Program-made: the position numbers and the translations under genes | In this document: in pieces, positions 5,889 to 28,325 of the stretch | Position numbering within the stretch: position 1 is the first letter of the stretch | Layout of the letters: every line of letters starts with the position of its first letter | Notes under the pieces: model-generated | Told to the model about the DNA's origin: nothing | Seen by the model: only the letters and a program-made list of their open reading frames with translations | Database searches by the model: none | From: a phage | Length of the DNA: 64,000 bases | NCBI GenBank assembly: GCA_018027755.1 | Contig: GCA_018027755.1_4098.1 | Reading direction: 5' to 3' (one strand)

Positions 5889-5891
5889 CAC

Positions 5892-6434
5892 ATGAGTATA
5901 CTTAATGAAATGTTAGATTATGAAGACAATGAGTTAAATGAAGCTCGTCCTTATAGTCGTTCACAAAGTGCAGTTGATAGTGCAAAAGGAAAAGTAAAAG
6001 GCTTTTTTGGTAGTGGACAGATTGAACAAGGTGCACAAGAAGTTGGTGCTGAAGCCAACCGCTTATGGGCAGAGTTTAAACGTTATGTTGGACGTAAATA
6101 TGGTAAAGCTCAACCATCAGTACCTTACGCTGATGTGGCACAGTTTTTTAAAGGTAACAATCTTGATATTAAACATTTAGGGAACAATCCTCGTCGTTCT
6201 TTTACACCAAAAGATGTAGGTACTGCTCTATTAAATGCTGCTCGTGATATAATGAATGACTACCGTGACCAACAAGGTGGCGAAGAAAGTTCAGAATCAC
6301 AACCATCACAATCGACCTCAACTGAGCAACCAGCACAACAAGAACAACCAAAAGCACAAGGTTCCAGTATCCCTGATGCTCTACAAAAATTAAGTCCAGA
6401 GCAACGCGACCAACTGTTACGTATGCTTTCTTAA
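5892..6434 (+). CDS. hypothetical protein with Q/S/E-rich low-complexity tail
   Basis: ORF packed 4 nt after the previous stop. Confidence 0.4.
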   Translation: MSILNEMLDYEDNELNEARPYSRSQSAVDSAKGKVKGFFGSGQIEQGAQEVGAEANRLWAEFKRYVGRKYGKAQPSVPYADVAQFFKGNNLDIKHLGNNPRRSFTPKDVGTALLNAARDIMNDYRDQQGGEESSESQPSQSTSTEQPAQQEQPKAQGSSIPDALQKLSPEQRDQLLRMLS

Positions 6435-6447
6435 GGAGAATCAACAC

Positions 6448-7965: not shown

Positions 7966-7987
7966 TAACTAAAAGGATTTATTTAAA

Positions 7988-8968: not shown

Positions 8969-8969
8969 T

Positions 8970-9365
8970 ATGCAATATAATTATCGTGAACTAGTTGAAG
9001 CGTTAGACGAAATTACCGGAAGAGATGAAGACGAAAGTTTTTCAGTTGAAGTTGAATCCGATGTTGTAGCAGTTGATGTTCTTAAGGATATTACCAAATG
9101 TCTTATTGATATTGTTGATAAGATTAAATCTGGTGAAGACCAAAAAGAAATTGTAGATAAACTACAAAAAGCCTGTGACATTTTGTCTGACATTCGATAT
9201 AATGATGAAAGTACTGAAGTTGCTGATGAAGAAGTGTTGGAAGCCATTGCAGGTTGTTTTGGAACTGAAGGTATGGGACCAACAATTGACAAAGAAGGCG
9301 TACAACACTATAATGAGCCTGGTGCACCATCATATGCTGCACGTCAAGGTTTTGTTGGAGACTAA
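8970..9365 (+). CDS. small acidic protein
   Basis: 131 aa, strongly acidic; start 2 nt after previous stop. Confidence 0.4.
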   Translation: MQYNYRELVEALDEITGRDEDESFSVEVESDVVAVDVLKDITKCLIDIVDKIKSGEDQKEIVDKLQKACDILSDIRYNDESTEVADEEVLEAIAGCFGTEGMGPTIDKEGVQHYNEPGAPSYAARQGFVGD

Positions 9366-9368
9366 TAT

Positions 9369-9749
9369 ATGTTTCCAGAACCGTCACATAACAGTACTGA
9401 ATATCAAAATAATGTACTTTCCAAAGTTAGGGAAGTACATGAATCAGATTCAGAAATAACAGACCGTATGCTTCTGATGTCAATTTTTGAAAATTTCAGA
9501 ACTGGCGGTGGTTTACGTCTTAGCAAGTTTGGGTATGGAATTTGTAAAGAAAATAATCTTTATGAATTTACAAAAATCCCCTTGCAAAGAGAATTTAAAA
9601 GTTCTATAATGTTTACATCACTTGACAGAATATGTACTTCACCTTATTATGTTGAAGGTCAGTACATATATCTGACAGATGCAATGATAATAACTGAATT
9701 AACATTGTGTTGTGACGATTTTAAACAGTTATTTTCTATTCATATGTAA
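9369..9749 (+). CDS. hypothetical protein
   Basis: ORF following the acidic genes; Cys-containing. Confidence 0.35.
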   Translation: MFPEPSHNSTEYQNNVLSKVREVHESDSEITDRMLLMSIFENFRTGGGLRLSKFGYGICKENNLYEFTKIPLQREFKSSIMFTSLDRICTSPYYVEGQYIYLTDAMIITELTLCCDDFKQLFSIHM

Positions 9750-9773
9750 GAAAAAATGAATTAAAAATAAATG

Positions 9774-9801
9774 TTGACAAGATAGAATGATGTGATACAA
9801 T
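9774..9801 (+). promoter_or_regulatory. sigma70-type promoter P1 (TTGACA-16-TACAAT)
   Basis: TTGACA, 16-nt spacer, TACAAT preceded by TG (extended -10). Confidence 0.55.
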
Positions 9802-9866
9802 AAGCATCAGACATAAAGTTTTCAAGCGACACAAGATGTGAGTTTGAAAAAAAAGAAAAAAAGTGA

Positions 9867-9894
9867 TTGACAAGTTGAAACGATGTGATATAAT
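9867..9894 (+). promoter_or_regulatory. sigma70-type promoter P2 (TTGACA-16-TATAAT)
   Basis: TTGACAAG..GATGTGATATAAT; shares the GATGTGATAyAAT box with P1. Confidence 0.6.
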
Positions 9895-9993
9895 GTTCAC
9901 ATCAAGACAGCAAAGAGATTTACCTTTTAAACACACGGATGATTCATGAAGTAACAAAGGAACTGATAAGTTAAATTATTTTAACACAGTTCC

Positions 9994-10022
9994 TTTACTT
10001 TTGCCCACGGATTGGCTATAAT
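9994..10022 (+). promoter_or_regulatory. putative promoter P3 (TTTACT-17-TATAAT)
   Basis: Good -10 TATAAT, weaker -35; overlaps a 10-bp inverted repeat AAAGGAACTG/CAGTTCCTTT. Confidence 0.35.
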
Positions 10023-10063
10023 AGAAACTTAAACGATTTTATCCAACAAAAGGAAATATATAC

Positions 10064-11389
10064 ATGACTACTCAAAACGATATCCTGAACGTTAAACTGA
10101 CTCCAAAGAAAGCTAAAGAAGCAATGGCACTAGCTGACATGATTCAAGATAGCCTGATGATTTGGGGTAGCCCAGGTATCGGTAAGTCTGCAATCGCTCG
10201 TCAATACGCTGATGAAAATTACCCACTGCGTAAAGATAACGTAGCTAAAATCGAGTTCATGAAACAACAAATCGAAGCTGACCCTGAAAATGCTGATCAG
10301 CTACGCCGTGAACTGGCTGCATTTGAAGCAAAACTAATCGACCAAGATACTAACTTTATCGATTTCCGTTTGTCTCAAATCGAACCAAGTGACCTTCGCG
10401 GTATTCCAGTACCAGAGAAGCTTTTCCGTAAAACTGACGGTTCTCTTCTGAAAGAATCTGAGCTTGCCGAAGCAAAAGATTATGTAGCTGAAACTGCGGT
10501 AGTATGGGCTGCACCTAAAGTTCTGAAATTGTCCGAAGATTGGAAAGGTGTTATTCTGTTTGACGAAATTAACTCTGCAATGCCTATTGTTCAGGCAGCG
10601 TCTTATCAGCTAATCCTCGACCGTTGTGTTGGTGAGATGAAGCTACCTAAGACTGCACTGATTCTTGCAGCAGGTAACCGTGAAACTGATGGCGGTGTAA
10701 CTTTCTCTCTTGCTACACCACTGCGTGACCGTATGACTCACATTGAGATGATTCCTTATCATCAAGATTGGATTAACGATTATGCGATTGCAAAACGTTT
10801 GAACCCAGCAACTGTTGCGTTCATCAACAACACTGGTTCTAAGTACTTTAACACACTTAGTCCACAAGATCCTTCTCACAGTGGTGGTACTTCTCCACGT
10901 TCATGGGAAGCAGTAGCACGCTACGAAGATCTCAAGAAAACTAAGACAATTGATAAAGAAGTGTTCCGTGCAATGATTGCTGGGCGTGTTGGTGAAGGTG
11001 TTGCAACTGAATACATTGAGTACGTTGAGAACGTTGCTAAACTACCAGATACTATGTCTATTCTGTCTGGTGAAATCAAAGAAATCGACGCAACGCTGGA
11101 TATTTCTGCGAACTACTTTATCACTCTGAACTTGGTTTATAAAATTATCGACCTGTTCAATGAGAAGCAAGAACAACGTCTACCAGTGGAAGAATGGGGT
11201 AAACTGTGTAACAACTTCATCACCTTCCTAGACCATAACTTCTCTGCAACTCAAGCAGAACTGGCAGTACTGGCAATTCGTACCATCACGCTTCATAAGG
11301 TTGCGATTTCCATTAAAGATGTACCAGCGTTTAAAGATTTCATCGCTAAGTACTCTGAACTTGTACGTAAAGCACGCTCTCTTGGCTAA
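10064..11389 (+). CDS. MoxR/CobS-like AAA+ ATPase
   Basis: Walker A GSPGIGKS, Walker B ILFDEIN, sensor AAGNRE, Arg finger region RDR; RBS AAGGA upstream. Confidence 0.8.
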   Translation: MTTQNDILNVKLTPKKAKEAMALADMIQDSLMIWGSPGIGKSAIARQYADENYPLRKDNVAKIEFMKQQIEADPENADQLRRELAAFEAKLIDQDTNFIDFRLSQIEPSDLRGIPVPEKLFRKTDGSLLKESELAEAKDYVAETAVVWAAPKVLKLSEDWKGVILFDEINSAMPIVQAASYQLILDRCVGEMKLPKTALILAAGNRETDGGVTFSLATPLRDRMTHIEMIPYHQDWINDYAIAKRLNPATVAFINNTGSKYFNTLSPQDPSHSGGTSPRSWEAVARYEDLKKTKTIDKEVFRAMIAGRVGEGVATEYIEYVENVAKLPDTMSILSGEIKEIDATLDISANYFITLNLVYKIIDLFNEKQEQRLPVEEWGKLCNNFITFLDHNFSATQAELAVLAIRTITLHKVAISIKDVPAFKDFIAKYSELVRKARSLG

Positions 11390-11463
11390 TTAACAAAGAG
11401 TTGTTGACAAGAAGGATGCCTAATGGTATCCTTCTTTTATCTTAACTAAACGAGGAAATATAC

Positions 11464-12888
11464 ATGTCAGATAACAAATCTACTTCCAGATTCAATGAAG
11501 TATCTCCGGCACTCCAGAAAGAATGTCAAGATCGTCTGGTTCTGGCTCGTACATCTTTGATGTTAACTGCACCATTCTTTGGTGTACTCGCTTCACGTTT
11601 ACGTCCAGTTCCTAATAATACATGGTGTCGTACTCTAGCAGTTGATGGTAAACATCTATTCTACAACGTAGAATTTGTAATGGGTATTCAAGACCCATCT
11701 AAAAAGAAAGAATATGAAGAAGCTATTCGTGAAAAGCATCCTGAAGTTACAGACGAACAATTAAAAGAAATGACTGAAGGTTTGACTGATGAAAACCTTA
11801 TTGCTGTAATTTGTCATGAAATTCTACACTGTGCTTACGATCACTTCCTTCGTCGTGGTATGCGTGATCCACAACGTTATAACCGTGCAGCGGATTATGC
11901 CATTAACCAAATCATCGTTCGTGAGAAAATTGGAAAAATCCAAAGTTCATGGTTGTATGATAAAAAATATGAAGGTATGACCGCAGAAGAGATTTACATT
12001 CTTCTTGAAGAAGAAGAACAAAAAGAAGATGGTGAAGGTGAAGGTCAACCACAAAGTGGCGGCGGTGAAGGTGAAGGTAAAAATCGCGGTACTTTTGGTG
12101 ATATTAAAGATGGTAAGGGTAAACCAAAAGGTACTACCATTGACCAGCATGACGTTCCACAAGAAGGTCAAGAAGGTGGTTCAAGTGAACAGCAAAAACG
12201 TGATTATATGGATGATTTCAAAACAGCAATGATGAATGCTGCACGTGCAGGTGGTACACCAGCAGAAATCGCTCGTATGATTAACAACTTTAAAGAACCA
12301 AAGATTGACTGGCGTTCAAAACTTCAACGTACACTTCGTAGTTGGTTGAAGTCTGATGCAACGTATCAAAGTCCTTCTCGTCGTTCATGGGGTGCTGGTT
12401 TTGGTTCTAATGGTTCATTCTATGGTAATCCAATTTACCCAGGGATGAAACCAGATGATGATATTGATATTGCGATTGCACTAGATGCTTCTGGGTCTAT
12501 TTCTGAAGATATGCTTCGTGATTTCATTAGTGAAGTTCTTGGCATCACTAAACAATTCAAACAGTTTAAGATTCGTATCATGACTTTTGATACTGAAGTT
12601 TATACTGTAAAGGATTACAAAACTGGCGAAGAACGTAAGATTCTGGAATATCCAGTAAAAGGTGGTGGTGGTACTGACTTTGAAGCAGTATGGGTTCATA
12701 TGAAGAACGACAACTACAAGCCTAAACAGCTTGTAATGTTTACTGATGGTGAACCGTGGCAGTCATGGGGTGATCCAAACTACTGTAAAACACTGTTCGT
12801 GATTCACAGTAACCCAAATAAAGTTGCACCATTTGGTGAGACTGTACACTACGAATATGAAGCTGATAAAAAGCGTCAACGTAGTTAA
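11464..12888 (+). CDS. VWA-domain protein with N-terminal HExxH zincin-like motif (CobT-like / DUF2201-like partner of the ATPase)
   Basis: HEILH motif; MIDAS DASGS and downstream FTDGEPW; Gly/Glu-rich linker EGEGQPQSGGGEGEGK; RBS GAGGA. Confidence 0.7.
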   Translation: MSDNKSTSRFNEVSPALQKECQDRLVLARTSLMLTAPFFGVLASRLRPVPNNTWCRTLAVDGKHLFYNVEFVMGIQDPSKKKEYEEAIREKHPEVTDEQLKEMTEGLTDENLIAVICHEILHCAYDHFLRRGMRDPQRYNRAADYAINQIIVREKIGKIQSSWLYDKKYEGMTAEEIYILLEEEEQKEDGEGEGQPQSGGGEGEGKNRGTFGDIKDGKGKPKGTTIDQHDVPQEGQEGGSSEQQKRDYMDDFKTAMMNAARAGGTPAEIARMINNFKEPKIDWRSKLQRTLRSWLKSDATYQSPSRRSWGAGFGSNGSFYGNPIYPGMKPDDDIDIAIALDASGSISEDMLRDFISEVLGITKQFKQFKIRIMTFDTEVYTVKDYKTGEERKILEYPVKGGGGTDFEAVWVHMKNDNYKPKQLVMFTDGEPWQSWGDPNYCKTLFVIHSNPNKVAPFGETVHYEYEADKKRQRS

Positions 12889-15462: not shown

Positions 15463-17427
15463 TTATCTAATTGTTACCAATGTTCTTCCGTCGAAACGTA
15501 CATCAGGAGTTGAAGGTATACTAAACACTACGTTAGTGCCGTTAAACGTAACGCTATCGACCTCAACACGAGTATAGACACCAGGACTAACCTGTTCCTG
15601 TATCTCTGCTGTGACGATGTTTGAGGCTGTTACAGTAAGGGTGTAGTAGTTACCACTTAATACCCAAGATGAAATTGTAAAAGCATCGGTTCTCACTGAA
15701 CCTGAACCAATTGGAACCCATTGACCTTGAACTTTTTGCATTGAAGTACGCTCGGTATTGGAGTATGCAATCATACCATCAACGCCAACAGAGTTATCAA
15801 TAGTAGCTAGTACTGGTAATTGGATACCATATCTATTAAAACGTGTTCTTATAGTTCCATTATCATAGATACTTACATCAGCATAATTACCCATTGATAG
15901 TTTTAAATCAGAACTAACTAATTGGATTGTACTTTGATTAGTAGTACTTTCTAATGTAATTATACCATTAGCTAATAGATTTATATTTTTAAATTTATTA
16001 GTTGTTCCATTGAAATTAGTGTTTGCTGTAAACGTACTAACTCCATTAACTGTAATTGTATCAGATGCAGCATCGCCTAATGTAGTATTACCTTGAATGT
16101 TCAAATTACCACTAGCAGTGATATTACTAGCTGATGTATCACCAGTCAATGTACTTGTACCATCAACCACAATATTACCATGAAACGCACTTTCACCATT
16201 TTTAAATTCAACTTGTACTTTATTCATTGAACTAAATGAAATAATATTACTACTAGCACTTAGTCCAACATTAGTATTGGTTGCATTATCAAATCTTAGT
16301 ACTGGGGTTGATGCTGGGGTTGAAGTTGTTTGGTATAATGTTAATGTTGAATTATTAATTCTAATACGTTCAGTTCCAGCAGTACTGAAACCAATTGCAT
16401 CATCTGCTGGATGAAACATACCAGTATTAGCGTCTGACCATTTTGCAGGATCATTACCTGGGTTATTGGTTGGATCAAATGGATTGTTATTAAATGTCAA
16501 TGCTGGTGCTGCTGCACTACCATAGACCACACCAAAACGCCCTGAGCCGCTTGTTCCATCATTATACATGGAATCACCAGTTCTACGTAAACACTCAATC
16601 ACAACGTTATCTATGGATGTTTGAACGGTCCCTGCGTTTGTCCTAAATTGACGATGATTTGCAATCATTACAGTATTGTCATATAATACTGAAGCAGCGG
16701 AAATGCTTGTTCTTGACTGGCGTAGACGTATGTTTTTATCTTCAGTTATAATAATCCAATCACCATCTGATAGTGCGGTTTGGTTCATTGGAACACCTGA
16801 AGCAAATGGTTTGGTTAAGTCAGCATCTGTTGCTAAATTTTTAAGACCATCATGACCAGTACTCGTAATAGATGCAGGAATAATTCTAGCGAAAGCGTAT
16901 GTTACTAGTTTAGCACCAGATATATTTGGATTGGAGTCAACATAATATAAAATTTCAATCCAATTACCTTGACCAGTTGGGTTCGTAGGTGTAAATGTAA
17001 CCGGACTTGTTTGTGGGTTATTTGCTTCAAAGTGTGCTTGTGCTGCATCCATAATACCACGAACAACATAATAATCACCATTTAGTGATGCTGCTGGTGC
17101 TGGTAGTGGTGTTTGTGCTAAAGGTGGATCAATATCATCTGGGATAGGATTGTATGTACCAACAAACTGTAAACCACTAGTTACTGAATCTGGTAATTGG
17201 GAAGTAAGAAGTTTACCATTTGCATCTAAGTTTGCAAAGCGGCGATATGCCATAGTACCATCTTCAAAATCCAGAACACCTTCAAATGATTTCCATTCCT
17301 TATTGTATCTAATCATCCCTGATCTTATTACATCAGCGGTTTCTTTTGATGGTGCTTTCGGTAACTCTAAAAAAGATTTACTATCAATAATTACACCACC
17401 ATCACCTCTAATTCGATTTATACTCAT
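15463..17427 (-). CDS. tail fiber-like structural protein
   Basis: 654 aa, G/S/T/N-rich beta-rich composition; located in fiber gene cluster; near-consensus late box TATAAATC about 25 nt upstream. Confidence 0.45.
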   Translation of the reverse strand: MSINRIRGDGGVIIDSKSFLELPKAPSKETADVIRSGMIRYNKEWKSFEGVLDFEDGTMAYRRFANLDANGKLLTSQLPDSVTSGLQFVGTYNPIPDDIDPPLAQTPLPAPAASLNGDYYVVRGIMDAAQAHFEANNPQTSPVTFTPTNPTGQGNWIEILYYVDSNPNISGAKLVTYAFARIIPASITSTGHDGLKNLATDADLTKPFASGVPMNQTALSDGDWIIITEDKNIRLRQSRTSISAASVLYDNTVMIANHRQFRTNAGTVQTSIDNVVIECLRRTGDSMYNDGTSGSGRFGVVYGSAAAPALTFNNNPFDPTNNPGNDPAKWSDANTGMFHPADDAIGFSTAGTERIRINNSTLTLYQTTSTPASTPVLRFDNATNTNVGLSASSNIISFSSMNKVQVEFKNGESAFHGNIVVDGTSTLTGDTSASNITASGNLNIQGNTTLGDAASDTITVNGVSTFTANTNFNGTTNKFKNINLLANGIITLESTTNQSTIQLVSSDLKLSMGNYADVSIYDNGTIRTRFNRYGIQLPVLATIDNSVGVDGMIAYSNTERTSMQKVQGQWVPIGSGSVRTDAFTISSWVLSGNYYTLTVTASNIVTAEIQEQVSPGVYTRVEVDSVTFNGTNVVFSIPSTPDVRFDGRTLVTIR

Positions 17428-17511
17428 TTAAATATTTCCTCAGAATAGATTTATATGATGTATTTATTTTAGTTAAAAGAAAAGGCCAAGCATAGGCTTG
17501 ACCTTAAAAAA

Positions 17512-18291
17512 TTAACGTATACGTTCAGGAATATCAATACCTTCATATACCCAAATTGCAGCTTGTTGTGCTTTATAAATTGCATCAGGATCTAAATCAT
17601 CAACTGCATCAATTGCAGCACACTGTTTGTCACATTCCGAAAACAATTGTTCAATCATTGCAAATGCTTCAGTATATAGTTGAGTCATTTCAGCAGCAGA
17701 TAATTTTACAATTGCGTCATCAAGAAAAATAGAAACACTTTCAGAGCCTGAAGTAACTTGTGTATAATAATTAAGAAGCATTTGACGACCAGACATATCA
17801 GTACTGTAACGATGACCATTGAACATATAACCAGAATTCATACGATTTGTACGTTCTGATATAGTTCTTGCTTTTAAATCAGCTTTAACATCTGCTATTG
17901 GCATATCAATATAATGATATGTTTTAAGAACAGTTAGTGCTTTATATTCTTCGGTAGCGTCTTCTAAAAATTCAACAATAGGTTGATTTTCATCTTTTAA
18001 TTTAATAAACTCCAACGGTTGTTCAATAGCATTAACATTTCCAAGATTTTTATACACTAACCACCAAAAACCTTCTTCTTTTCTAACAGCATCATTAGGT
18101 TCTACTGGGGAACCATCTTTACTTGAAATACCATAAAGAGTTCTAATATCACTATAAAGATAACGATAGGTTTGTGGATCTTCTGGTGTTGCACCTGGAC
18201 GTTCTTTAAGTCCTTTTACACCAATTGGATTGGAAATAATACTTCCCAATTCATAATTTTCTTTTGAATTTCCTTTCACATATGTGAACAT
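17512..18291 (-). CDS. hypothetical protein (between two fiber genes)
   Basis: ORF with GAGG RBS; minus-strand terminator hairpin at about 17475-17500 downstream. Confidence 0.4.
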   Translation of the reverse strand: MFTYVKGNSKENYELGSIISNPIGVKGLKERPGATPEDPQTYRYLYSDIRTLYGISSKDGSPVEPNDAVRKEEGFWWLVYKNLGNVNAIEQPLEFIKLKDENQPIVEFLEDATEEYKALTVLKTYHYIDMPIADVKADLKARTISERTNRMNSGYMFNGHRYSTDMSGRQMLLNYYTQVTSGSESVSIFLDDAIVKLSAAEMTQLYTEAFAMIEQLFSECDKQCAAIDAVDDLDPDAIYKAQQAAIWVYEGIDIPERIR

Positions 18292-18355: not shown

Positions 18356-21300
18356 TTAAGCAGTACGTTGTGCAATAAACATATCTGTTACTGGACTCAC
18401 CCCGTCATAAATGACTTGGTAGATAGTTACAGAGTTTGCAGTTTTGTTTAGAGTTCCATCAACAACCGCATAAGTACCATCAGTAGTAAAGTTTCTATTA
18501 CCTGTTGCATCTTGTTTCACATAAATGTATACTGAAGATGCTTTACCACCACCGATTAGACCAGTGATTGGTGCTAGAGTGGTATCTTGATCTAGAGTGA
18601 TAAAGTATACGTTGCTAGTACCGTCTGGGGTCCAAGTACCAGTTGGTGCGATAACAGAAGAAGTTACTTGATTAGGAATAACATCATATTTTTTAGTAGT
18701 TACTGTTGTTGTAGTTAGGTCAGCATTAGTAGTTGTCAATTGACCAGTTACAGTTACATCTTTATCAAATACTGCATTTTCTTTGAAAGAAGATGTTGCA
18801 TTGACAGTTAATGTATCAGCAGCAGCGTCACCTAAAACAACACTACCATTTGCAGTCATTAAACCAGTAACAGTTAAAGTACCACCGATTGTTGCTGCTC
18901 CAGTAACAGATGCACTAGCAAGTGTTGCTGCACCAGAAGTAGTAATGGTAGTTACTGAAGTTGCTGCTAGGGTTGCAGTACCTGTTGCAGAAATATCACC
19001 ACCAACAGTTAGGTTACCAGAAGTAATTCCAACGGTTCCAGTAATGTTAGCACCACTTGACATCGTTACTGCACCACCAAATGAACCAGTAGTAGTTACT
19101 TCAAGGGTGTTCCCTTTTAGTAGACCAGTTGCAGTAATACTTGTACCTGCGGTAATACTAGTACCAGCAGCAACACTGTTGGTTGCAGTTAATGATTTAA
19201 CAGCCACGTCAGAGTTTGCTTGGTTTAGTGTTGCGTTTAGTAGACCAGTTACTGTAAAGTTACCGTTGTTAACTACGTTACCATTGATTGTTAAGTTGTT
19301 GTTTTGTGAACCAACATCACCAATAGTTGCTGATTTGGAAATCAACTCTGCACCAGAAGTAATGTTACCCGCTGCACTAATAGTGTCAGCCGCAACAACT
19401 GCATAAGGTTCAATTGTTTGACCACTAACGTCAATATCAGCGTTGATACCACCATCTACACGCAAGGAGCCTGCAATGTAAGTATTAGGGAAAATCTGAA
19501 CTGTCTCTGGTTGATCACCAATTTTAGTACCGATAATAACATCAGAACCAGTTTTAACTGCACCAGAGGTTGTTAGTGAACCTAAAGTTGTAGCACCAGT
19601 TACACCTAATGTTCCACCAATTGTTGCGTTATTGGTAACTGCTAATGCAGCACCTTCACCATTAAGAGCGATTGATGGAGCAGATACTGCACCAGTTACG
19701 CCTAATGTGCCACCAATTGTTGCGTTGCCATCTGAATGTAGAGTTGTAGCTACAGAAAGACTGTTAGCAACTACATCAGTACTAGCTAAATCCAATGCAC
19801 CTGGGGTTAATGTACCAGTAATGTTAACATTATTACCAAAGGTTGCTGCACCAGTCACATCTAGTGTAGTACTAAATGTACCAGAGGTTGCAGAGATTGC
19901 ACCTGAATCTAGTGATCCAACAGTTGCTTTCCCAGTTACACCTAAAGTTCCACCAACAGTTCCATTTGTGGTTACATCCAATGTACCAGTACTTAGTTCT
20001 TGTGCGGTTACCTTACCGGATGCAGTAACAGTTGAAGTGGAAACGCCACCAGTTAGAGTACTAGCACCAGTAACACTTAATGTGGTTGCAGCAGTTACGC
20101 TATTTACGCTAAGATCAGCACCGGATAAGTCCAAACCACCTTCAGGAACAAATACACCCTTAACAGTTAGTTTTTGTACTGTACTATCACCTGTTACATC
20201 CAAGGTAGAAGCAGTTAAACCACCATTCATACTTGCTGCACCAGTAACACCTAGTGTAGTGGTTACAGTAGCACTATTAAGTGTTGAACTACCAGAAATA
20301 TTAGCACTAGGAGCAGTAATAGTTCCAGAATCAACTTGTATACCACCAGCAACAACCTGAATTCCACCAGCATTAACTGTTAGTTTACCAGCAGTATTCA
20401 ATGTATTTGAAACTGTTGTTGCACCAGTTAAAGTTGTAGTACCAGTTACACCTAAGTTACCAGAAATAGATGGACTACCTGTAATATTACCAGTAGTTAG
20501 TATCAAATCAGTACCTACGGTAGTGGAGCCAGTACTTTCTAGTGTTACACCGACGATGTTTGCAGAACTTAGGTTAATAGTACCATCAACAGTTAAGTTA
20601 CCTTGAACGGTTGCATCACCTAGAGAAGTTAATGTCTTCACAGACACATCAGTTGTGCTAAGATCAATAACACCCGCAGTTAGTGTTCCAGATACTGCTA
20701 AATTACCAGTAATCGCGGTATTTTTAGTAATGGATACATTTTCTGCCGCTGAAGTAATAGAACCAACAGTAAGTACACCACCAACAGTTGCGTTATTAGT
20801 TACATTTAGAGCAGTTCCAACACCAGATAGTGTTGCTGACCCACCAGTAATTGCACCTGAGATTGAAGCTGTTGCTGCTGAAACATCACCAGAAACTACT
20901 GCATTTGTTGCATTTAGAGCAGACACTGTAACTTCAGTACTTTGAACTTTAGGTAGAACGTTGATACCTTCTGCACTACTAACTGTAATAATACCAGTAC
21001 TTGTTAGAGATTTAACAGATACATCAGCACCACTTAAATCAACTGTACCAGAAACAACAAGATCTCCACCAATATTTGCTCCAGCGGTAGTAGTAATGGA
21101 TTTTGCACTTACATCAGTTGTGCTCAAATCAATTGCACCTGGTGTTACTGTACCAGAAACTGTTAGGTCACCAGTAATAGATGTATTATTGGAAATAGAT
21201 ACACCATCAACGTTACTAATTGTTGGGGTTTCTACAGAAACTGCTTTAACTTTACCTGAAGAAGTTACGTCAGCTACGGTAGATGCACCAGTAACATTCA

Positions 21301-23881
21301 AATTAGTAATATTTGCAGTTGTTGAACCAAGGGTTGCAATAGTTGCATCAGTACTTTGAAGTTTAGGTAGAACACTACTAATTGTGGATTCATTACTAAC
21401 AATTGCACCAGTACTAGTTAAAGATTTGACAGTAACATCAGCCGTAGTAAGATCTACTGTACCATTAACAGTTAGGTTACCACCAATAGTTGCACCAGCA
21501 GTAGTAGTAATGGATTTAGCATTAACATCAGTTGTTGCTAGATCGATAGAGCCTGGAATAACTGCACCAGTAACAGTTAGGTCACCAGTTACATTTGTAT
21601 TATTGGAAATAGTGACACCACTTGCATTTGAAATGGTTGGGGTAACCAACGATGCAGTTGTAGTTTCACCAGTTACAGTTAAAGTTGACCCAACTAGAAC
21701 AGATGAGCTTGAGTAAATTGTACCCAAATTAGCAGATCCGGTAACAGTTATATCATCAGCATTAACAGTAGTTGCCGTTATGGTAGTACTATTAAGTACT
21801 GGAAGTACGTTAGCATTAACAAGATCATTACTTTTAACAATACCAGAAGTAGTTAATGATTTAACATTAAGGTCGGCTGCTGATAAATCAAAAGAGCCTT
21901 GAACTACTAAATCACCACCAATAGTTGCACCAGCAGTAGTAGTGATTGATTTAGCATTAATATCGGTAGTGCTCAAGTCTAGAGAACCAACAGTTAAGCT
22001 ACCAGTAATATCAACATTTTCTGTAAAGTTAGTATTACCACTAATAGTTGGTGCAGTCAGAGTTGTTGCACTAATATTAGTACCGTTAATTGTTTGCCCA
22101 CTTACAGTTCCACTCGCAGTGATAGTAGGGGCCGTTACTTCAGTAGATGCACTAATTGTTGGTGCAGATACAGAAGTTGTACCAGTAATAGAACCAGAAC
22201 TTACTGAACCAGCGGATAATGCACCAGAAAGAGTTGCAGTTGTACCAGCAATATCACCAGTAACAGTTAGTTTAGCACCCACGGTAGTGTTACCAGTACT
22301 TTCAAGTGTTGCACCTTTAATATTTGCTGCCGCGACAACAGAATTAGGTGTTAGATCCTGCCCACTAACATCAACAGTTAGTCCAGTTACTGTTCCAGTA
22401 AATTCAACATCATTAAGAATTGCTTTACCACCAACTTGTAGGAATGGTGTACCTGGAGCTTGTGTTTCGTTACCAGTAATAGTTAGGTAATCTAGTTTGT
22501 TTAGACCGTTACCAGTAATACCATAAGTGGAAAGAGAAGCGTTACCGAAAGTTGCTGTTTTAAGAACGTTCAATGTAGAAGGAGAAACGACTTCTGATTG
22601 AACTTCGTTAGGTAGAATAACTGTTGGGCGTTGACCTGGTGCAGTATATCCAAAACCTAGTTTCACTGCCGCATCTTGACTATTTTGGCCTAAGCTGATA
22701 GATTTAAAGGATGCAGTACTGTTATAACCAGTAATATTAGAACCAAGAGTAACACCACCAACTAATGAAGTTGCACCAGTAACGTTCAATGATACTGCAT
22801 TAATATCGTCTAGTTGGAATGATCCACCAAGAAGACCAGAAACATTAATGTTATTAAAATTAGCAGTTCCAGTACTTTCAATATTTGGAATAGTTGCAGT
22901 TCCGGTTACTTCAAAGTCAGCAACTTTGGTTTTGCCTTTTTGAACTTCTAATAGTGGTGTGTCTGGAGATTGTGTGTTGTTACCAGAAACTGTTAGATAA
23001 TCCAATTTGTTTAGACCATTACCAGTAATACCATAAGAAGATAATGACGCATTACCAAAAGAAGCAGAGGTCAATACTGTCAAGTTTGCAGGTGACATTA
23101 GCTCGGACTGAATTTCGTTTTGTAGAATAACAGTTGGGCGTTTACCAGGAGCAGTGTAAGGGAAGCTTAATCTGAAGGTTTGTGATTCAGAGTTAGAACC
23201 AATACGAATGTCTTTAAAAGTAGCAGTACTGTTAATACCAGTTACGTTAGCACCGAAAGTCACTGCACCTTGTTGGTTAGATGCACCAGAAACGTTCAAT
23301 GTTACTGCATTTAAGTCAGAAAGATTAAACTGACCACCTAATGTACCACTAATGGTTACATCTTTAAAAGTAGCAGTTCCAGTACTACTAATATCGGTTG
23401 TACTTACATTAGTAATTTCTGCGGAATTAGCAGTAATTTTATCAAATGCAGAAGTAGTACCAACATCAGCAGTAATATTACCTTTAAATGCTGTTGTTTC
23501 AGCAACTTCTAAGTTTTTAACTTTAGTTGCTTGTAGAGTGGTTGTACCAGCAGTTTGTGTGAAATCAGAACCAACTGATACAGTACCGTTAAAGGTAGCG
23601 TTTGAATTAATTGTTGCTGTATCAGACCCGACAACTGCACTACCGATTGTAGTATTACCCTCAACACCAAGACCACCAGAAAGTGTTGCTTTGCCACCAA
23701 CATCTAAAGTAGATGTAATGTTGGCAGTTGATGATTCAATGGCAGTAAAAGTTGCATTTGCAAAAGTTACAGTACCATTTACAGTTAGGTTATTATTGAA
23801 AACAGCATTTCCTTTGACTAAAAGATCCTTACCAACCGTACCAGCACCAGTAATATCTAAGTCAGTTTTTATTGAGTACAT
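18356..23881 (-). CDS. very large repetitive tail fiber protein (1841 aa)
   Basis: T/G/S/A/V-rich; about 130-aa units repeated at least 4 times (IDLxTTDVxAKSITTTAGAxIGGxLxVxGxxDLxxADVxVKSLTSTG); a second duplicated unit FGNASLSxYGITGNGLNKLDYLT. Confidence 0.7.
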   Translation of the reverse strand: MYSIKTDLDITGAGTVGKDLLVKGNAVFNNNLTVNGTVTFANATFTAIESSTANITSTLDVGGKATLSGGLGVEGNTTIGSAVVGSDTATINSNATFNGTVSVGSDFTQTAGTTTLQATKVKNLEVAETTAFKGNITADVGTTSAFDKITANSAEITNVSTTDISSTGTATFKDVTISGTLGGQFNLSDLNAVTLNVSGASNQQGAVTFGANVTGINSTATFKDIRIGSNSESQTFRLSFPYTAPGKRPTVILQNEIQSELMSPANLTVLTSASFGNASLSSYGITGNGLNKLDYLTVSGNNTQSPDTPLLEVQKGKTKVADFEVTGTATIPNIESTGTANFNNINVSGLLGGSFQLDDINAVSLNVTGATSLVGGVTLGSNITGYNSTASFKSISLGQNSQDAAVKLGFGYTAPGQRPTVILPNEVQSEVVSPSTLNVLKTATFGNASLSTYGITGNGLNKLDYLTITGNETQAPGTPFLQVGGKAILNDVEFTGTVTGLTVDVSGQDLTPNSVVAAANIKGATLESTGNTTVGAKLTVTGDIAGTTATLSGALSAGSVSSGSITGTTSVSAPTISASTEVTAPTITASGTVSGQTINGTNISATTLTAPTISGNTNFTENVDITGSLTVGSLDLSTTDINAKSITTTAGATIGGDLVVQGSFDLSAADLNVKSLTTSGIVKSNDLVNANVLPVLNSTTITATTVNADDITVTGSANLGTIYSSSSVLVGSTLTVTGETTTASLVTPTISNASGVTISNNTNVTGDLTVTGAVIPGSIDLATTDVNAKSITTTAGATIGGNLTVNGTVDLTTADVTVKSLTSTGAIVSNESTISSVLPKLQSTDATIATLGSTTANITNLNVTGASTVADVTSSGKVKAVSVETPTISNVDGVSISNNTSITGDLTVSGTVTPGAIDLSTTDVSAKSITTTAGANIGGDLVVSGTVDLSGADVSVKSLTSTGIITVSSAEGINVLPKVQSTEVTVSALNATNAVVSGDVSAATASISGAITGGSATLSGVGTALNVTNNATVGGVLTVGSITSAAENVSITKNTAITGNLAVSGTLTAGVIDLSTTDVSVKTLTSLGDATVQGNLTVDGTINLSSANIVGVTLESTGSTTVGTDLILTTGNITGSPSISGNLGVTGTTTLTGATTVSNTLNTAGKLTVNAGGIQVVAGGIQVDSGTITAPSANISGSSTLNSATVTTTLGVTGAASMNGGLTASTLDVTGDSTVQKLTVKGVFVPEGGLDLSGADLSVNSVTAATTLSVTGASTLTGGVSTSTVTASGKVTAQELSTGTLDVTTNGTVGGTLGVTGKATVGSLDSGAISATSGTFSTTLDVTGAATFGNNVNITGTLTPGALDLASTDVVANSLSVATTLHSDGNATIGGTLGVTGAVSAPSIALNGEGAALAVTNNATIGGTLGVTGATTLGSLTTSGAVKTGSDVIIGTKIGDQPETVQIFPNTYIAGSLRVDGGINADIDVSGQTIEPYAVVAADTISAAGNITSGAELISKSATIGDVGSQNNNLTINGNVVNNGNFTVTGLLNATLNQANSDVAVKSLTATNSVAAGTSITAGTSITATGLLKGNTLEVTTTGSFGGAVTMSSGANITGTVGITSGNLTVGGDISATGTATLAATSVTTITTSGAATLASASVTGAATIGGTLTVTGLMTANGSVVLGDAAADTLTVNATSSFKENAVFDKDVTVTGQLTTTNADLTTTTVTTKKYDVIPNQVTSSVIAPTGTWTPDGTSNVYFITLDQDTTLAPITGLIGGGKASSVYIYVKQDATGNRNFTTDGTYAVVDGTLNKTANSVTIYQVIYDGVSPVTDMFIAQRTA
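20640..22000 (-). repeat. in-frame tandem coding repeats (about 390-nt period) inside fiber gene
   Basis: Repeated peptide units above and near-identical antisense ORF translations in the track (20961-21359, 21384-21716). Confidence 0.55.
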
Positions 23882-23977: not shown

Positions 23978-24010
23978 ATAAAAACCAGACTTATTTAGAA
24001 CAAGTCTGGT
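23978..24010 (-). terminator. bidirectional intrinsic terminator
   Basis: CCAGACTT-loop-AAGTCTGG with A-run on one side and T-run on the other. Confidence 0.65.
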
Positions 24011-24018
24011 TAATTTTT

Positions 24019-24931: not shown

Positions 24932-27073
24932 TTATGGTAGGGTTATGTAAGTTACGGGTTGGGCAGCTTTTAATGCTGCACCAGCGGCAGTTGCTGTTAT
25001 GATAGGATCTGCAATATCAATTCTATATACGTTGTTTACAACATACACTGCACGAGTTATATACGTTCTCAAATCACCACCATTTTCACCAGCACCGGAT
25101 ATAATGATCTCAGTACCAGCAGCTTTTGCATATTGGTTTTCACCCCATGACACACCCAATGCTTCTATGTATGTTTGTCCTGCTACCGTTTGTCTAATTG
25201 TGTCATATTTTCCGAAAAAAGAACCACCAACAGTTACAATATATTTTCCACCCGATTGTTTATGAATAATCGTGCCTTCAGAGAAATAGCGTCCCCCAGG
25301 AAAAGTATCGTATGGAATATAATATTGCTCAACTACAGGTATCAGTACTGGGCCACGGTGTCCTGTACCATCGATTGCAGTTGTAACTTTAAAGTTATTA
25401 GATGATTGGTCTATTCTGTCTACATACATTTTAGAAAAACTATATTTTGAAACATTACAATCATCTTGAACAACACAGTTAGTCCAATTAGTATAAGTAT
25501 ATTTAGAGCGAGTATAGATACCACCACCTTCGCCTTCTGTAGAGAGGTGTTGACCAATTACATCTAATTCTTTAGTTCTAATATCACTAAATTTAGATGA
25601 TGATGGCAAACCACGCCAAAGAATTTTAGAACAGGTGATATTGCTCAATTCTGTATTATTTAACCAATTATCAGAACCGGAAGTATAAACAAGTATAGAA
25701 GACTCTGGAATATAGAGATTAGAAATTTTAAAGTTTCTAGGTGGTCCAGCAAAACGACCAGAAGTTACACCCCAGTTTATTGAAACCATTCTATTTGTGA
25801 TAGAAGGATCATTAAGCAAATGACCAGTCAACCCATCAATAATGAATTCTTTAGAACCATAAGTTATAACACCAGCAGTGGTTAATCCAGTACCGACAGA
25901 AACTAAAGATGATGGATAAACTTCATTATTAAGTATTTTAAAGTCCATGCCTAATTCAACGTGGATACATTGTCTAACATTATATAGTCTGTTATTTTTA
26001 ATAACAAAGTTTCTTACATATTGTGTGTCTGGTGCATCTAAACCATAAGGTCCAGAACCAGCAACTCCAATACCAATACCCCAGTTTGAAAGTGGGATTG
26101 GAGCGTTAGAACCATCAACGTTTTCAATTATGTTCCCTTCAATAACAAAACCATCAGGATAGTGTGAGTTAATTACGTTTAGTTCAATTGCATCACCATA
26201 TATATCATGTATGTGGTTATATGAATATCTACCAACCTTCATTTTCTCACCAGTACCTTGTTGAAGAACGCCATACTTACATTGGGTCATTTCATTAAAG
26301 CAAAAATCTATTGTACCTGGTTGTGTCATACCTTGCATTAAAAATGCAGCAGTACTTGTGATGTTTATAAATTTATTAAAATAAAACTTACCATCGCCGC
26401 CGAAGAATTTTAAATAACATCCAGTAAGTGTTGCAAATTGTATTTGGGAATTAATAACGGATACCATAGTACCACCGTTACCAGTAATAGTTCCCCCAAA
26501 CCAAGTTACATCTTCCAGATATATTGCAGTTTTGATACGGTAATTACCACCAGCCTGAATTTGGATTTTATTTTCTTTAGCATAAGCAGCACATAAATTT
26601 ACAGCAGCAGTGTCATCAGTTTCGCCATCACCTTTAGCACCAAATTCTTCTGGTGTTATATAAAACTGTGCCTGTTGAACTGTACCTCCAGTAATAAGTC
26701 CGATGAAATCTCCACCATTTTTACTGGATAGAACTTTTTTATTAATGTATAATGATTTTACCCATGTACCATTGCTTTTTGCAAAAATATCAACAATACC
26801 ATCTTCATCAATTTGAAAATACGTATTATTGTTCTTTCCTATATCATCGGTAGGTGGTACAACACCAAATAATGCATTAGGGTTATCTTCAAGATATTTT
26901 ACGTTAACTGCTGAATTAGGATCAGATGAAGTTCCTACCTTCAGTGGTAGGAACTGTTCTCCTAGATAATCTTTTATAGAAACTGAATCATTGATAAAAT
27001 TTATTGAAGCACCTTTTTTCCCCAATATGAATTTGGGCTGCATAGTTCCTTCAAAATTAGAAAATACTGCCAT
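24932..27073 (-). CDS. tailspike protein with pectate-lyase-type (right-handed beta-helix) depolymerase domain
   Basis: Hallmark motif FGAKGDGETDDTAAVNLCAAYA; shared N-terminal adapter; GGAGG RBS. Confidence 0.7.
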   Translation of the reverse strand: MAVFSNFEGTMQPKFILGKKGASINFINDSVSIKDYLGEQFLPLKVGTSSDPNSAVNVKYLEDNPNALFGVVPPTDDIGKNNNTYFQIDEDGIVDIFAKSNGTWVKSLYINKKVLSSKNGGDFIGLITGGTVQQAQFYITPEEFGAKGDGETDDTAAVNLCAAYAKENKIQIQAGGNYRIKTAIYLEDVTWFGGTITGNGGTMVSVINSQIQFATLTGCYLKFFGGDGKFYFNKFINITSTAAFLMQGMTQPGTIDFCFNEMTQCKYGVLQQGTGEKMKVGRYSYNHIHDIYGDAIELNVINSHYPDGFVIEGNIIENVDGSNAPIPLSNWGIGIGVAGSGPYGLDAPDTQYVRNFVIKNNRLYNVRQCIHVELGMDFKILNNEVYPSSLVSVGTGLTTAGVITYGSKEFIIDGLTGHLLNDPSITNRMVSINWGVTSGRFAGPPRNFKISNLYIPESSILVYTSGSDNWLNNTELSNITCSKILWRGLPSSSKFSDIRTKELDVIGQHLSTEGEGGGIYTRSKYTYTNWTNCVVQDDCNVSKYSFSKMYVDRIDQSSNNFKVTTAIDGTGHRGPVLIPVVEQYYIPYDTFPGGRYFSEGTIIHKQSGGKYIVTVGGSFFGKYDTIRQTVAGQTYIEALGVSWGENQYAKAAGTEIIISGAGENGGDLRTYITRAVYVVNNVYRIDIADPIITATAAGAALKAAQPVTYITLP

Positions 27074-27087
27074 TATGACATCCTCCC

Positions 27088-28215
27088 TTAAATATTATCT
27101 TGAATCGGTTGGATAGGAGCTTGCCATGAAAGAGTACAAATAATTTCCATTTTTCCATAAGGACTGTTGTTAACAGAATCGTTGAATACACATGAAATAA
27201 TTTCATCAACATCGGATGCTGCATGATTAGTTTCATTAACAATAAAACGCATCTGACGATTGATATCAAAGTAGGAAGTTGGTGCAATTACAGTTCCACC
27301 AATATCTTCTTGTGCTTCACCACCAAAACGTACAAACATATCAGTTACAGGAAGAGAATAAGGTTGTATAACGTTTACATCAATATTAGAAACTACATAT
27401 CCAGCAGGACACGTACCAATAACTAATAGTGCGTTAGTCCATGAGCTATCTATTGTATTTCTAATAGAAATTGTATCTTTACCTGGTGCACCTGGTTCGC
27501 CTTGTATACCTTGAATACCTTGCTGACCTTCTTTACCACGGAATAGAATACCATCACTCCACTCTTTTGAAGGAGGGGTAGTTGTAGTTACTTCATCAAC
27601 ATAATATAGTTTTCCATCAGTGTTGTTATAAAAACAATAATCAACTGGAAGATTTTCAATACTTGGAAATTGATCACCACTACTATCAATATGGAAACGA
27701 CCACGCGGACCTTGTTCACCACGGAAAGGGATACCATCACTCCAAGTGGCAGTTACACTTTGATAGAAATAAAGCTTACCATCTTGAGTATTATAAAATG
27801 TATAGTTATTAAAAAGACCAGTTGTTGGGAAAGTAGTCCCAGCACTATCAATGTGGAACGGCTTACCCGCTTCACCAGTATCACCTTTACCAAACTCAAC
27901 ACTAATCCATGTACTTGTCGGATCTTGTGCATCGTTTGATTTAAAGTATAGAGTACTGGTGTTGTTAGCCAAGCTTAAGTAGCACCACCCAAGTGGTTCA
28001 CCAACTTTAAATTGTTCGGAAGGAATTTCAAAACCAATCTCATTAGGATAAAAGTTTTTACCATTCTCGCCATTCTGTCCTACAACAAGACCTAAATCTT
28101 GAATTGTGTTATCTGCATAGGTTACAATTAAATGCCCAGCACCATTAATAACTAGACTTTTGATGCCGGAGTTATTACATGAACCACTGGACCCATTGTT
28201 AAATGAAATTGTCAT
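27088..28215 (-). CDS. collagen-like repeat tail fiber protein
   Basis: G-X-Y runs GQNGENGKN, GEQGPRG, GKEGQQGIQGIQGEPGAPGKD; ATG at 28215 has AGGGA RBS (track start 28251 is TTG). Confidence 0.55.
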   Translation of the reverse strand: MTISFNNGSSGSCNNSGIKSLVINGAGHLIVTYADNTIQDLGLVVGQNGENGKNFYPNEIGFEIPSEQFKVGEPLGWCYLSLANNTSTLYFKSNDAQDPTSTWISVEFGKGDTGEAGKPFHIDSAGTTFPTTGLFNNYTFYNTQDGKLYFYQSVTATWSDGIPFRGEQGPRGRFHIDSSGDQFPSIENLPVDYCFYNNTDGKLYYVDEVTTTTPPSKEWSDGILFRGKEGQQGIQGIQGEPGAPGKDTISIRNTIDSSWTNALLVIGTCPAGYVVSNIDVNVIQPYSLPVTDMFVRFGGEAQEDIGGTVIAPTSYFDINRQMRFIVNETNHAASDVDEIISCVFNDSVNNSPYGKMEIICTLSWQAPIQPIQDNI

Positions 28216-28325
28216 AATATTTCCCTTGTATGAGTTAATGTCATATACCAATATTTATCAGTACAAAATACATTTCGTTATCATTAATAAATAAATGAAA
28301 GTTCACTACTAAAAGGGCTTAAACA

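Follow-up and report, generated by a model that had tools for sequence, protein, structure and literature searches.

Long in-frame modules and their probable unequal recombination in the tail fiber gene of an Asteriusvirus-like jumbo phage

The fiber locus and its repeat modules

The window analysed here is a stretch of 64,000 nt of phage DNA (NCBI GenBank assembly GCA_018027755.1, contig GCA_018027755.1_4098.1), which at 99% nucleotide identity belongs to Asteriusvirus, the group of 121Q/SP27/phAPEC6-like jumbo myophages. Its minus strand carries a long ORF that was originally predicted to be a fiber gene, an identification borne out by profile matching, by orthologues and by published virion proteomics. 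The protein matches the phrog_4549 'tail fiber protein' profile (E = 7.6e-227, 756.5 bits; PHROG search) in 9 stretches, because its modules hit the 869-position profile repeatedly. It shares 99.5% amino acid identity with 121Q gp571, phAPEC6 gp256, SP27 and others, while the gene is 98.9–99.1% identical at the nucleotide level to those of 121Q/phAPEC6/SP27, equally long (5526 nt) and flanked by the same genes; by identity and synteny it falls within the asteriusvirus gp256/gp571 orthologue group. No substantive difference separates it from these genes, which are named 'long tail fiber proximal subunit' in GenBank, and the gene is already known, being annotated as a tail fiber of ~180 kDa in many GenBank records. 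phAPEC6 gp256 (180.38 kDa) has been found in virions by mass spectrometry (15 peptides, 15.9% coverage; PMC7247149), as has CBB_226, the orthologue from CBB (10 peptides; PMC5259590). The module architecture and copy-number variation described below are not mentioned in PMC7247149, PMC5259590, PMC12648861 or PMC13070987, the texts of which were searched for fiber- and repeat-related terms. The features of the locus, ordered from upstream to downstream of the fiber gene, are:

23983..24011, minus strand: terminator-like hairpin (13-bp stem, then a T-run) separating the 298-aa virion gene upstream from the fiber gene; pattern match only
18356..23881, minus strand: tail fiber ORF, ATG start, 1841 aa plus stop; orthologue of 121Q gp571 and phAPEC6 gp256
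23429..23881, minus strand: unique N-terminal region (aa 1-151), rich in beta structure; its bactofilin/left-handed beta-helix-like matches fall below threshold (PF04519, E = 8e-4)
22922..23428, minus strand: module A1 (aa 152-320), from diagonals, tile BLAST, unit HMM and DNA repeat
22415..22921, minus strand: module A2 (aa 321-489), from unit HMM; duplicated once more in CRJP21/JP4
22079..22414, minus strand: linker shaft (aa 490-601) with the junction motif 'VDVSGQDLTPNSV'; homologous to the phiTE fiber
21647..22078, minus strand: module B1 (aa 602-745), from DNA repeats, tile BLAST and unit HMM
21230..21646, minus strand: module B2 (aa 746-884), from the same three sources
20765..21229, minus strand: module B3 (aa 885-1039), likewise from DNA repeats, tile BLAST and unit HMM
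20402..20764, minus strand: module B4 (aa 1040-1160), the most diverged B copy, lacking the unit's middle segment
19697..20032, minus strand: module C (aa 1284-1395); two near-identical copies at this place in UB, CRJP21 and JP4
19346..19696, minus strand: degenerate C-like module (aa 1396-1512), from unit HMM and nucleotide comparison
18356..18694, minus strand: conserved C-terminal domain (aa ~1730-1841 plus stop), common to fibers of phiTE, rV5-like and phAPEC8-like phages
17512..18291, minus strand: DUF4376 virion protein of 259 aa downstream of the fiber gene; mass spectrometry detected CBB_225 in virions (PMC5259590)
17482..17505, minus strand: terminator-like hairpin ending the pair of fiber and DUF4376 genes; pattern match only

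The order of a 298-aa virion protein gene upstream and a 259-aa DUF4376 gene downstream is alike in the window, UB, CRJP21, ph0011 and UE-S1, and the DUF4376 gene adjoins the fiber gene in all relatives examined; its product is probably a partner of the fiber. A promoter scan found no enrichment (48 sites, against 51 in shuffled sequence).

The protein starts with its unique N-terminal region, which presumably serves for attachment, continues as a long, putatively beta-stranded shaft rich in Thr, Gly, Ser, Val and Ala, and ends in the conserved domain of ~110 aa. Within the shaft, long modules repeat in frame; they fall into three families, designated A, B and C, and were placed by diagonal self-scoring (BLOSUM62), tile BLAST and unit HMMs. 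Self-comparison of the protein confirmed periodicity far above chance: the best 40-aa diagonal windows scored 172, 165, 155, 152 and 133 at offsets of 170, 138, 283, 145 and 155 aa, respectively, whereas the maximum diagonal score of 20 residue shuffles averaged 57 and never exceeded 71. Family A comprises two copies of 170 aa (54% identical along the offset-170 diagonal of A1/A2, with 60-aa tiles ranging from 53 to 76%), family B four copies of 138–155 aa, with B4 the weakest, and family C, of 112 aa, one good and one degenerate copy. Tile BLAST and unit HMMs delimit B1 to B4 at aa 602-744, 746-883, 885-1027 and 1040-1160, respectively. The original prediction of at least four units of roughly 130 aa plus a second duplicated block holds, but understated the length of B and overlooked the third family.

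The predicted DNA-level tandem repeats of about 390–510 nt were recovered as well, as four copies spaced 465/414/435 nt (60–75% identity) and one pair spaced 510 nt (75%). The copies are old and strongly diverged, with unit-wide nucleotide identities of 45–70% in the window, and in register they match exactly over no more than 30 nt (B1/B2), 19 nt (A1/A2), 17 nt (B2/B3) and 14 nt. Tandem Repeats Finder reported none of the A, B or C arrays and found only three micro-arrays of 18–21 nt, since divergence puts the long copies beyond its reach.

Searches of Pfam and NCBIfam with the whole protein and with every module separately returned no family above threshold, and the PF26209 tag attached to the relative P0014 was not reproduced in the Pfam search. 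A scan of IMG/VR matched one locus, a homologous-protein search gave 3 matches for unit A and 1 for the C-terminal domain, and tblastn with the fiber as query found no paralogue elsewhere in the window. The A module is limited to a small family, since exhaustive HMMER searching with the unit-A profile returned only 11 representatives at E <= 1e-3.

Relation to known fibers and the appendage concerned

A structural reference is the putative tail fiber of Pectobacterium phage phiTE (PDB 9CUY/9MJN chain g, 793 aa), deposited as a fiber chain with a myophage baseplate structure. Two parts of the window protein are homologous to it (E = 2.9e-30), namely module A2 with the adjoining junction, and the C-terminal end (aa 1656-1838). 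Chain g has less than half the length of the window protein and contains neither the A duplication nor the B or C array; its N-terminal ~205 residues, which may be a wedge-binding helical bundle, have no match in the window protein. The long tail fiber of phiTE has been predicted to be trimeric, to contain an extended beta-helix and to measure 512 A, but only its residues 14-171 are modelled in the structure paper, so that the homologous parts lie outside the model if chain g is that fiber. An AlphaFold2 monomer of module A2 plus the junction came out all-beta, but its mean pLDDT of 38 (5-sequence alignment) made it unusable. The window protein may be a trimeric beta-helical fiber. Each module would add very roughly 7–11 nm to its length, a figure derived by proportion from the 512 A of the phiTE prediction and assuming that this fiber is the 793-aa chain.

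Fibers built from modules that recombine belong to textbook phage biology. In T4, gp34 and gp37 follow the same principle, being long fibers with internal repeats in which in-frame tandem duplication via short-homology recombination alters the fiber; Tetart et al., in a 1996 study cited in PMC3157838, reportedly described how T4 host range was expanded via duplications of a small tail fiber adhesin domain (gene 37). The gene 37 duplications are small and affect the receptor-binding tip, whereas the window units measure 112–170 aa and belong to the shaft. T4-type records were absent from the phage tblastn matches listed, and Pfam/NCBIfam gave no family above cutoff. The 'proximal subunit' of T4 gp34 is for the window gene a GenBank label only: the downstream gene encodes the 259-aa DUF4376 protein, and no distal-subunit gene for the window fiber was identified.

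Another arrangement is found in fEgEco12 (g317/g316), BF17, Ecwhy_1 and vB_Ec-M-J, which at this locus, between the 298-aa and DUF4376 genes, carry tandem paralogues of the entire gene. These paralogues are built from the same A, B and C modules, and g316 shares 56% identity with the window protein along its whole length; they differ from the window in that a pair of genes (1644 and 1906 aa) takes the place of the single one, with three B units and different C counts.

The GenBank name implies a baseplate fiber, but the protein might instead form the long hair-like tail (possibly capsid) whiskers of phAPEC6, CBB and fEgEco12, with the number of modules setting whisker length, a reading that is judged unlikely. 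CBB whiskers measure 119 +/- 10 nm and its baseplate fibers 28.6 nm (PMC5259590), phAPEC6 (PMC7247149) and fEgEco12 likewise combine short baseplate fibers with hairs, and proteins of 1553–1841 aa would reach roughly 100–120 nm by the same scaling from the phiTE fiber, which is crude enough to weaken the argument. The N-terminus also lacks homology to the one by which the phiTE fiber is bound to the baseplate, and Rak2, for which no whiskers have been reported, has no homologue of CBB_226; GAP32, however, does have one, yet no whiskers have been described for it (PMC5259590). The position of the gene in a baseplate/tail module, among wedge, hub and depolymerase-like spike genes, also counts against whiskers. 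The authors of the CBB study could not assign the whisker genes of that phage (PMC5259590).

Length variation among relatives and its likely origin

The orthologues are 1827, 1834, 1841, 1959 and 2129 aa long, and in a MAFFT alignment of five of them each large indel spans precisely a single A unit (170 aa) or a single C unit (112 aa): relative to the window, the 170-aa block is extra in CRJP21 and the 112-aa block in UB and CRJP21. Unit HMMs gave the copy numbers A2/B4/C2 for the window, A2/B4/C3 for UB, A3/B4/C3 for CRJP21, A2/B3 for g316 of fEgEco12 and C1 for its g317. The 2129-aa form, with exactly one extra A unit, occurs in the records of both CRJP21 and JP4. Across approximately its first two-thirds the middle A copy of CRJP21 is A2-like and in its last third A1-like, as judged at the sites separating A1 from A2 of the window, and the switch point lies in the conserved 'FGNASLS.YGITGNGLNKLDYLT' stretch, which is the site of the 19-nt exact repeat of the window. 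The extra copy is a chimera of an A2 head and an A1 tail, as expected from unequal crossover. Its acquisition appears comparatively recent, since the A copies of CRJP21 are 85% identical at the nucleotide level with an exact run of 84 nt, and outside the insertions the gene is mostly 93–100% identical to that of the window per 100-column block.

A third A copy is also present in P0004, a protein of 2120 aa that shares 49% identity with that of the window, where it is A1-like (A1/A2 84%); that of CRJP21 is A2-like (A2/A3 90%), and the two arose independently. For family C, aa 1300-1430 of the window protein match both C copies of UB at 24–30 of 30 nt per 30-nt segment, and the difference among relatives could represent either a gain or a loss. 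Within a protein the copies are closer to one another than to their orthologues: A1 and A2 of CBB are 75% identical mutually and at most 42% to the window units, while those of P0006 are 70% identical mutually and at most 56% to the units of other proteins, which points to concerted evolution.

The gene is probably best explained, as a whole, as a modular fiber shaped by unequal recombination of long in-frame units; the +170 and +112 aa indels, the CRJP21 chimera and the independent third A of P0004 are the marks of duplication and unequal recombination. Modules would arise, and would still at times be gained, lost and homogenised, via unequal homologous recombination of misaligned copies, and, with all unit lengths divisible by 3 nt, the reading frame would be kept at each event. 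In the window, the best substrate would be the 30-nt exact repeat of B1/B2, yielding +/-435 nt, followed by the 19-nt exact repeat of A1/A2, yielding +/-510 nt, although frequent rearrangement is unlikely in this genome, as its copies are too diverged.

The length variation by recombination foreseen in the original prediction accordingly holds on an evolutionary scale, whereas the slippage proposed with it, and rapid population-level variation, are not supported. All 12 near-identical GenBank records (eleven phages, with 121Q present twice; at least 98.7% nucleotide identity) have a gene of 5526 nt, and length variants were seen only in more diverged lineages, so that rearrangement is rare and this is not a fast slippage locus. 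Replication slippage was discarded as the mechanism on account of the length (400–500 nt) and divergence (45–70% identity) of the units, and a hypervariable slippage or contingency locus was rejected, its copies being far from near-identical and its length constant among the closest isolates.

The same constancy of length would fit a view of the repeats as frozen relics of ancient duplications, purely structural and no longer recombining, with the length differences few, very old and non-adaptive, as would the diverged copies, whose exact runs do not exceed 30 nt, the silence of Tandem Repeats Finder and the presence of the A x2, B x3-4 layout in genera as distant as those of CBB and SE_PL. 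This is nevertheless quite unlikely in light of the comparatively recent extra A of CRJP21, the separately arisen third A of P0004 and the closeness of copies within lineages, which requires repeated turnover or conversion. Assembly artefacts were rejected as highly improbable: repeats of 340–510 nt can confuse short-read assemblers and be collapsed or expanded, but neighbouring copies in CRJP21 and UB differ at 15–18% of nucleotides and are easily resolved, the 2129-aa form stands in two separate records, the divergent P0004 likewise has three A units, and the extra copy is cleanly chimeric and bears substitutions of its own.

Under the preferred explanation of unequal recombination, fiber length and module number may be tuned to the host surface. 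The extension of this idea to the whiskers, in which the gene would encode whisker fibers whose length is matched to capsule or O-antigen thickness through module gain, loss and concerted evolution, is considered unlikely. The system is not of a new kind but a tidy and ordinary instance of fiber evolution, offering a clean natural case of unequal crossover and concerted evolution in a phage structural gene. The gene sets part of the host-recognition apparatus in a group of jumbo coliphages under consideration for therapy against APEC and O157; its discrete in-frame modules and natural two- and three-copy variants provide tolerated cut points ready for the engineering of fiber length.

Antisense open reading frames

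Seven antisense ORFs of 85–242 aa lie inside the fiber gene, all in one frame. They had been put down to the repeats, but codon-shuffled genes, in which the repeats are destroyed, contain a similar number of stops in that frame (mean 33.2, against 31 observed) and comparable open runs (216 +/- 60 codons, against a longest observed run of 281). The ORFs are due instead to the composition of the fiber, which is rich in Thr, Gly, Ser, Val and Ala and poor in Tyr (1.0%), His (0.1%) and Gln (2.1%). That some of them, such as the 242-aa ORF at 19632..20360 on the plus strand, are real overlapping genes is scarcely credible and was rejected: no relative is annotated with a gene there, the stops of this single frame require the scarce sense-strand Tyr, His or Gln codons, the shuffles reproduce the pattern, and the ORFs, long and conserved as they are, are conserved because the sense gene is.

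Fiber gene and its repeat modules

The gene under study (18356..23881, minus strand) is a real ORF with a GGAGGG ribosome-binding site ahead of its ATG at 23881, and its product is 1841 aa long. Over the full length it shares 98.7–99.1% DNA identity with twelve GenBank records (SP27, slurp01, 121Q (listed twice), phAPEC6, G17, Sharanji, SHEFM2K, E9.1 and others), whose phages are jumbo myophages, of the genus Asteriusvirus for the records inspected; the counterparts are 121Q gp571 and phAPEC6 gp256. Its prediction as a fiber gene agrees with the match of the protein to phrog_4549 'tail fiber protein' (E = 7.6e-227) and with the mass spectrometry detection of gp256 (180.38 kDa) in purified phAPEC6 virions (PMC7247149), while CBB_226, a distant orthologue, has been detected in CBB virions (PMC5259590). 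Pfam and NCBIfam searches returned no family over any part of the protein, and its GenBank label, 'long tail fiber proximal subunit', thus finds no support here. The gene is already known and has been annotated many times over.

Protein self-comparison (diagonal scoring, 40-aa windows, BLOSUM62) gave best scores of 172, 165, 155, 152 and 133 at offsets of 170, 138, 283, 145 and 155 aa, against a mean maximum of 57 and a top value of 71 in 20 residue shuffles, so that the long in-frame tandem repeats of the original prediction, and the internal periodicity expected of them, are essentially right. Three module families were delimited by tile BLAST, alignments and unit HMMs.

Repeat modules of the fiber protein (aa positions)
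Family A: 152–320, 321–489; period 170 aa; diagonal 54% aa overall, 60-aa tiles 53–76%
Family B: 602–744, 746–883, 885–1027, 1040–1160; period 145/138/155 aa; weakest copy B4
Family C: 1284–1395 and degenerate 1396–1512; period 112 aa; 38% aa over the core

The predicted four or more units of about 130 aa correspond to the four B copies, at a unit size of 138–155 aa, and the second duplicated block would be the A pair with its 510-nt spacing; family C (112 aa) is a third, beyond these two. A DNA repeat search found four copies spaced by 465/414/435 nt (60–75% identity) and one pair 510 nt apart (75% identity). Tandem Repeats Finder picked up none of the long module arrays. The copies are old: across whole units they share 45–70% nt identity, with longest in-register exact runs of 19 nt (A1/A2), 30 nt (B1/B2), 17 nt (B2/B3) and 14 nt.

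A short motif, xDLS(T/A/G)xD(V/L/I)xxx(S)(L/I/V)T, recurs along the protein, with about two occurrences in each B unit, one at the A-to-shaft junction and further ones in the C units (fiber aa ~505, 636, 660, 781, 805, 919, 943, 1074, 1240, 1385 and 1480; window ~19440–22370), and a homologue from Pectobacterium phage phiTE carries it as 'DVDGLDIHPRSV' and 'DLSGSDLSVDN'. In the fiber it may indicate a structural knot or a shift in register.

Copy-number variation and recombination among relatives

The orthologous fibers are 1827 aa (UE-S1), 1834 aa (ph0011), 1841 aa (window and 121Q type), 1959 aa (UB) and 2129 aa (CRJP21 and JP4) long. In a five-way orthologue alignment, the large indels are a block of exactly 170 aa, present in CRJP21 only, and a 112-aa block in UB and CRJP21, sizes that match the A and C periods.

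Module copy numbers counted by unit HMMs
Window: A2/B4/C2
UB: A2/B4/C3
CRJP21: A3/B4/C3
vB_Ec-M-J gene 303: A2/B4, up to four C-like units
BF17, fEgEco12 g316: A2/B3
Ecwhy_1 207, fEgEco12 g317: A2/B3/C1
Salmonella phage SE_PL: two A, ~3–4 B
Pectobacterium phage CBB: two A; B matches only one strong and a few weak

Only 11 proteins carry unit A according to an exhaustive profile search over 1.84 billion representatives; they have one (homologues P0008 and P0010), two or three (P0004) strong copies each.

The predicted length variation by recombination is thus found among relatives, which differ by whole A or C units and include a chimeric A copy. This chimera, the middle A copy in CRJP21, joins a body of A2 type to a tail of A1 type; at nucleotide sites that tell A1 from A2 in the window it follows A2 over roughly its first two-thirds and A1 over its final third, as would be expected of an unequal crossover between an A2 and an A1 that were misaligned. 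The changeover falls within the conserved stretch 'FGNASLS.YGITGNGLNKLDYLT', where the longest A1/A2 exact match of the window (19 nt) is also located. CRJP21 A2/A3 share 85% nt identity with an exact run of 84 nt, and the UB C1/C2 pair shares 82%; both events came long after the original duplications. Window residues 1300–1430 match both UB C copies at 24–30 of 30 nt per 30-nt window, which would fit a loss on the window side as well as a duplication on the UB side.

The extra A copy is A1-like in P0004 (84% to its own A1) and A2-like in CRJP21 (90% to its own A3), and A therefore expanded at least twice independently. Module copies of one protein are closer to each other than to orthologous copies across lineages: A1 and A2 share 75% in CBB (no more than 42% with the window units) and 70% in the homologue P0006 (no more than 56% with those of other proteins). 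Such a pattern is that of concerted evolution, whether through conversion or through repeated rounds of duplication and loss.

As a mechanism, recombination that is rare and either homologous or based on short homologies fits better than replication slippage. The slippage-like instability also proposed in the original prediction finds no backing, as replication slippage is unlikely for units of 340–510 nt at such divergence and the gene is exactly 5526 nt long in all twelve near-identical records. With this length kept and identities of only 14–30 nt in the window, the locus is not hypervariable; the likeliest spontaneous variants in the window genome are predicted to be ±435 nt (B1/B2) and ±510 nt (A1/A2).

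Reshaping of a modular tail fiber through in-frame duplication and recombination, as in the present gene, is a long-established principle for T4 gene 37 and other fibers, reportedly described by Tetart et al. in 1996 (a study cited in PMC3157838). A search of the consulted Asteriusvirus and Rak2-like papers for fibers and repeats turned up no A/B/C module map, copy-number variants, chimeric joint or concerted-evolution pattern. These are small descriptive additions and not a new kind of system, and the repeat-built fiber gene is an ordinary finding.

Antisense ORFs and predicted structure

The seven antisense ORFs inside the gene (85–242 aa), previously ascribed to the repeats, share one frame relative to it by coordinate arithmetic. 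In this frame a stop can arise only where a Tyr codon follows a codon ending in T or C, or where a His or Gln codon follows one ending in T, and Tyr, His and Gln account for just 1.0%, 0.1% and 2.1% of the protein. Stops in the frame number 31, and its longest open stretch spans 281 codons; 200 codon shuffles, which destroy the repeats, gave a mean of 33.2 stops and longest runs of 216 ± 60 codons (maximum 457). The antisense ORFs are thus explained by composition, not by the repeats.

The only solved-structure relative is chain g of the phiTE baseplate deposit 9CUY, a 793-aa fiber chain (E = 2.9e-30) aligning with A2 plus the following junction and with the C-terminal domain; judged from its composition, it would be the phiTE long tail fiber. 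According to the phiTE paper, this fiber is a trimer with an AlphaFold-predicted extended beta-helix and a predicted length of 512 Å, the experimental model covering residues 14–171 only. AlphaFold2 on A2, with an alignment of 5 sequences, failed to give a usable model (pLDDT 38). Homology to phiTE, together with the composition (T 18.7%, G 12.1%, S 10.9%, V 10.2%, A 9.9%), makes a trimeric fiber of beta structure the most likely form of the protein. Assuming that the 512-Å fiber is the 793-aa chain, scaling puts the 1841-aa protein at very roughly 120 nm, with 11 nm for each A unit and 7 nm for each C unit. In published micrographs, CBB has short baseplate fibers (28.6 nm) and unexplained hairs of ~119 nm (PMC5259590); short baseplate fibers and hairs are likewise seen in phAPEC6 (PMC7247149) and fEgEco12. 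The fiber protein may form either kind of appendage, the hairs being the less probable reading.

Paralogues and genomic neighborhood

The sister clade (fEgEco12, BF17, Ecwhy_1 and vB_Ec-M-J) carries a tandem pair of paralogous fiber genes (1644 and 1906 aa, 49–54% mutual identity; 1553–6487 and 6637–12357 in the fEgEco12 locus L009, the other clade loci being L006, L007 and L008), whereas the window has one. The paralogue closest to it is that beside the DUF4376 gene (56% identity over full length); the upstream copy in vB_Ec-M-J is a 582-aa gene whose match is confined to the last third of the window protein, at the C-terminal end. NCBI lists two fragments (P0001 and P0014), 61–94% identical to the window fiber and located on contigs of 1.3–2.2 kb, as partial hypothetical proteins from Actinomadura adrarensis and Escherichia coli. 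Contaminating or carried-over phage DNA in bacterial assemblies is their most likely source.

Around the fiber gene lies a module for tail and baseplate. It encodes a DUF4376 virion protein directly downstream of the fiber gene, a virion protein of 298 aa, a baseplate wedge subunit, a hub/lysozyme protein and the 713-aa and 3333-aa proteins of the list below, which also gives other features nearby.

15463–17427, minus: 654-aa ORF, phrog_14293, just downstream of the DUF4376 gene
17482–17505, minus: terminator-like hairpin, 10-bp stem then T-run
23983–24011, minus: terminator-like hairpin, 13-bp stem then T-run
24932–27073, minus: 713-aa pectate-lyase-like 'colanic-acid-degrading' protein, phrog_6117 'colanic acid degradation', pectate-lyase-like match sub-threshold
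27088–28251, minus: 387-aa tail protein adjoining the 713-aa gene, faint collagen-repeat match
36330–46331, minus: 3333-aa virion protein, end-to-end match to phrog_10938 'virion structural protein'

The 713-aa protein is likely a depolymerase tailspike, and the 3333-aa product very probably corresponds to phAPEC6 gp245 (381.88 kDa, detected in virions). Both strong hairpins flank the fiber and DUF4376 gene pair, suggesting a two-gene transcription unit. The gene after DUF4376 differs between close relatives: its product has 654 aa in the window and ~760 aa in ph0011 and UE-S1, and in UB and CRJP21 it is a 'structural protein' of 455 aa. These differences suggest a second swappable host-range cassette beside the fiber.
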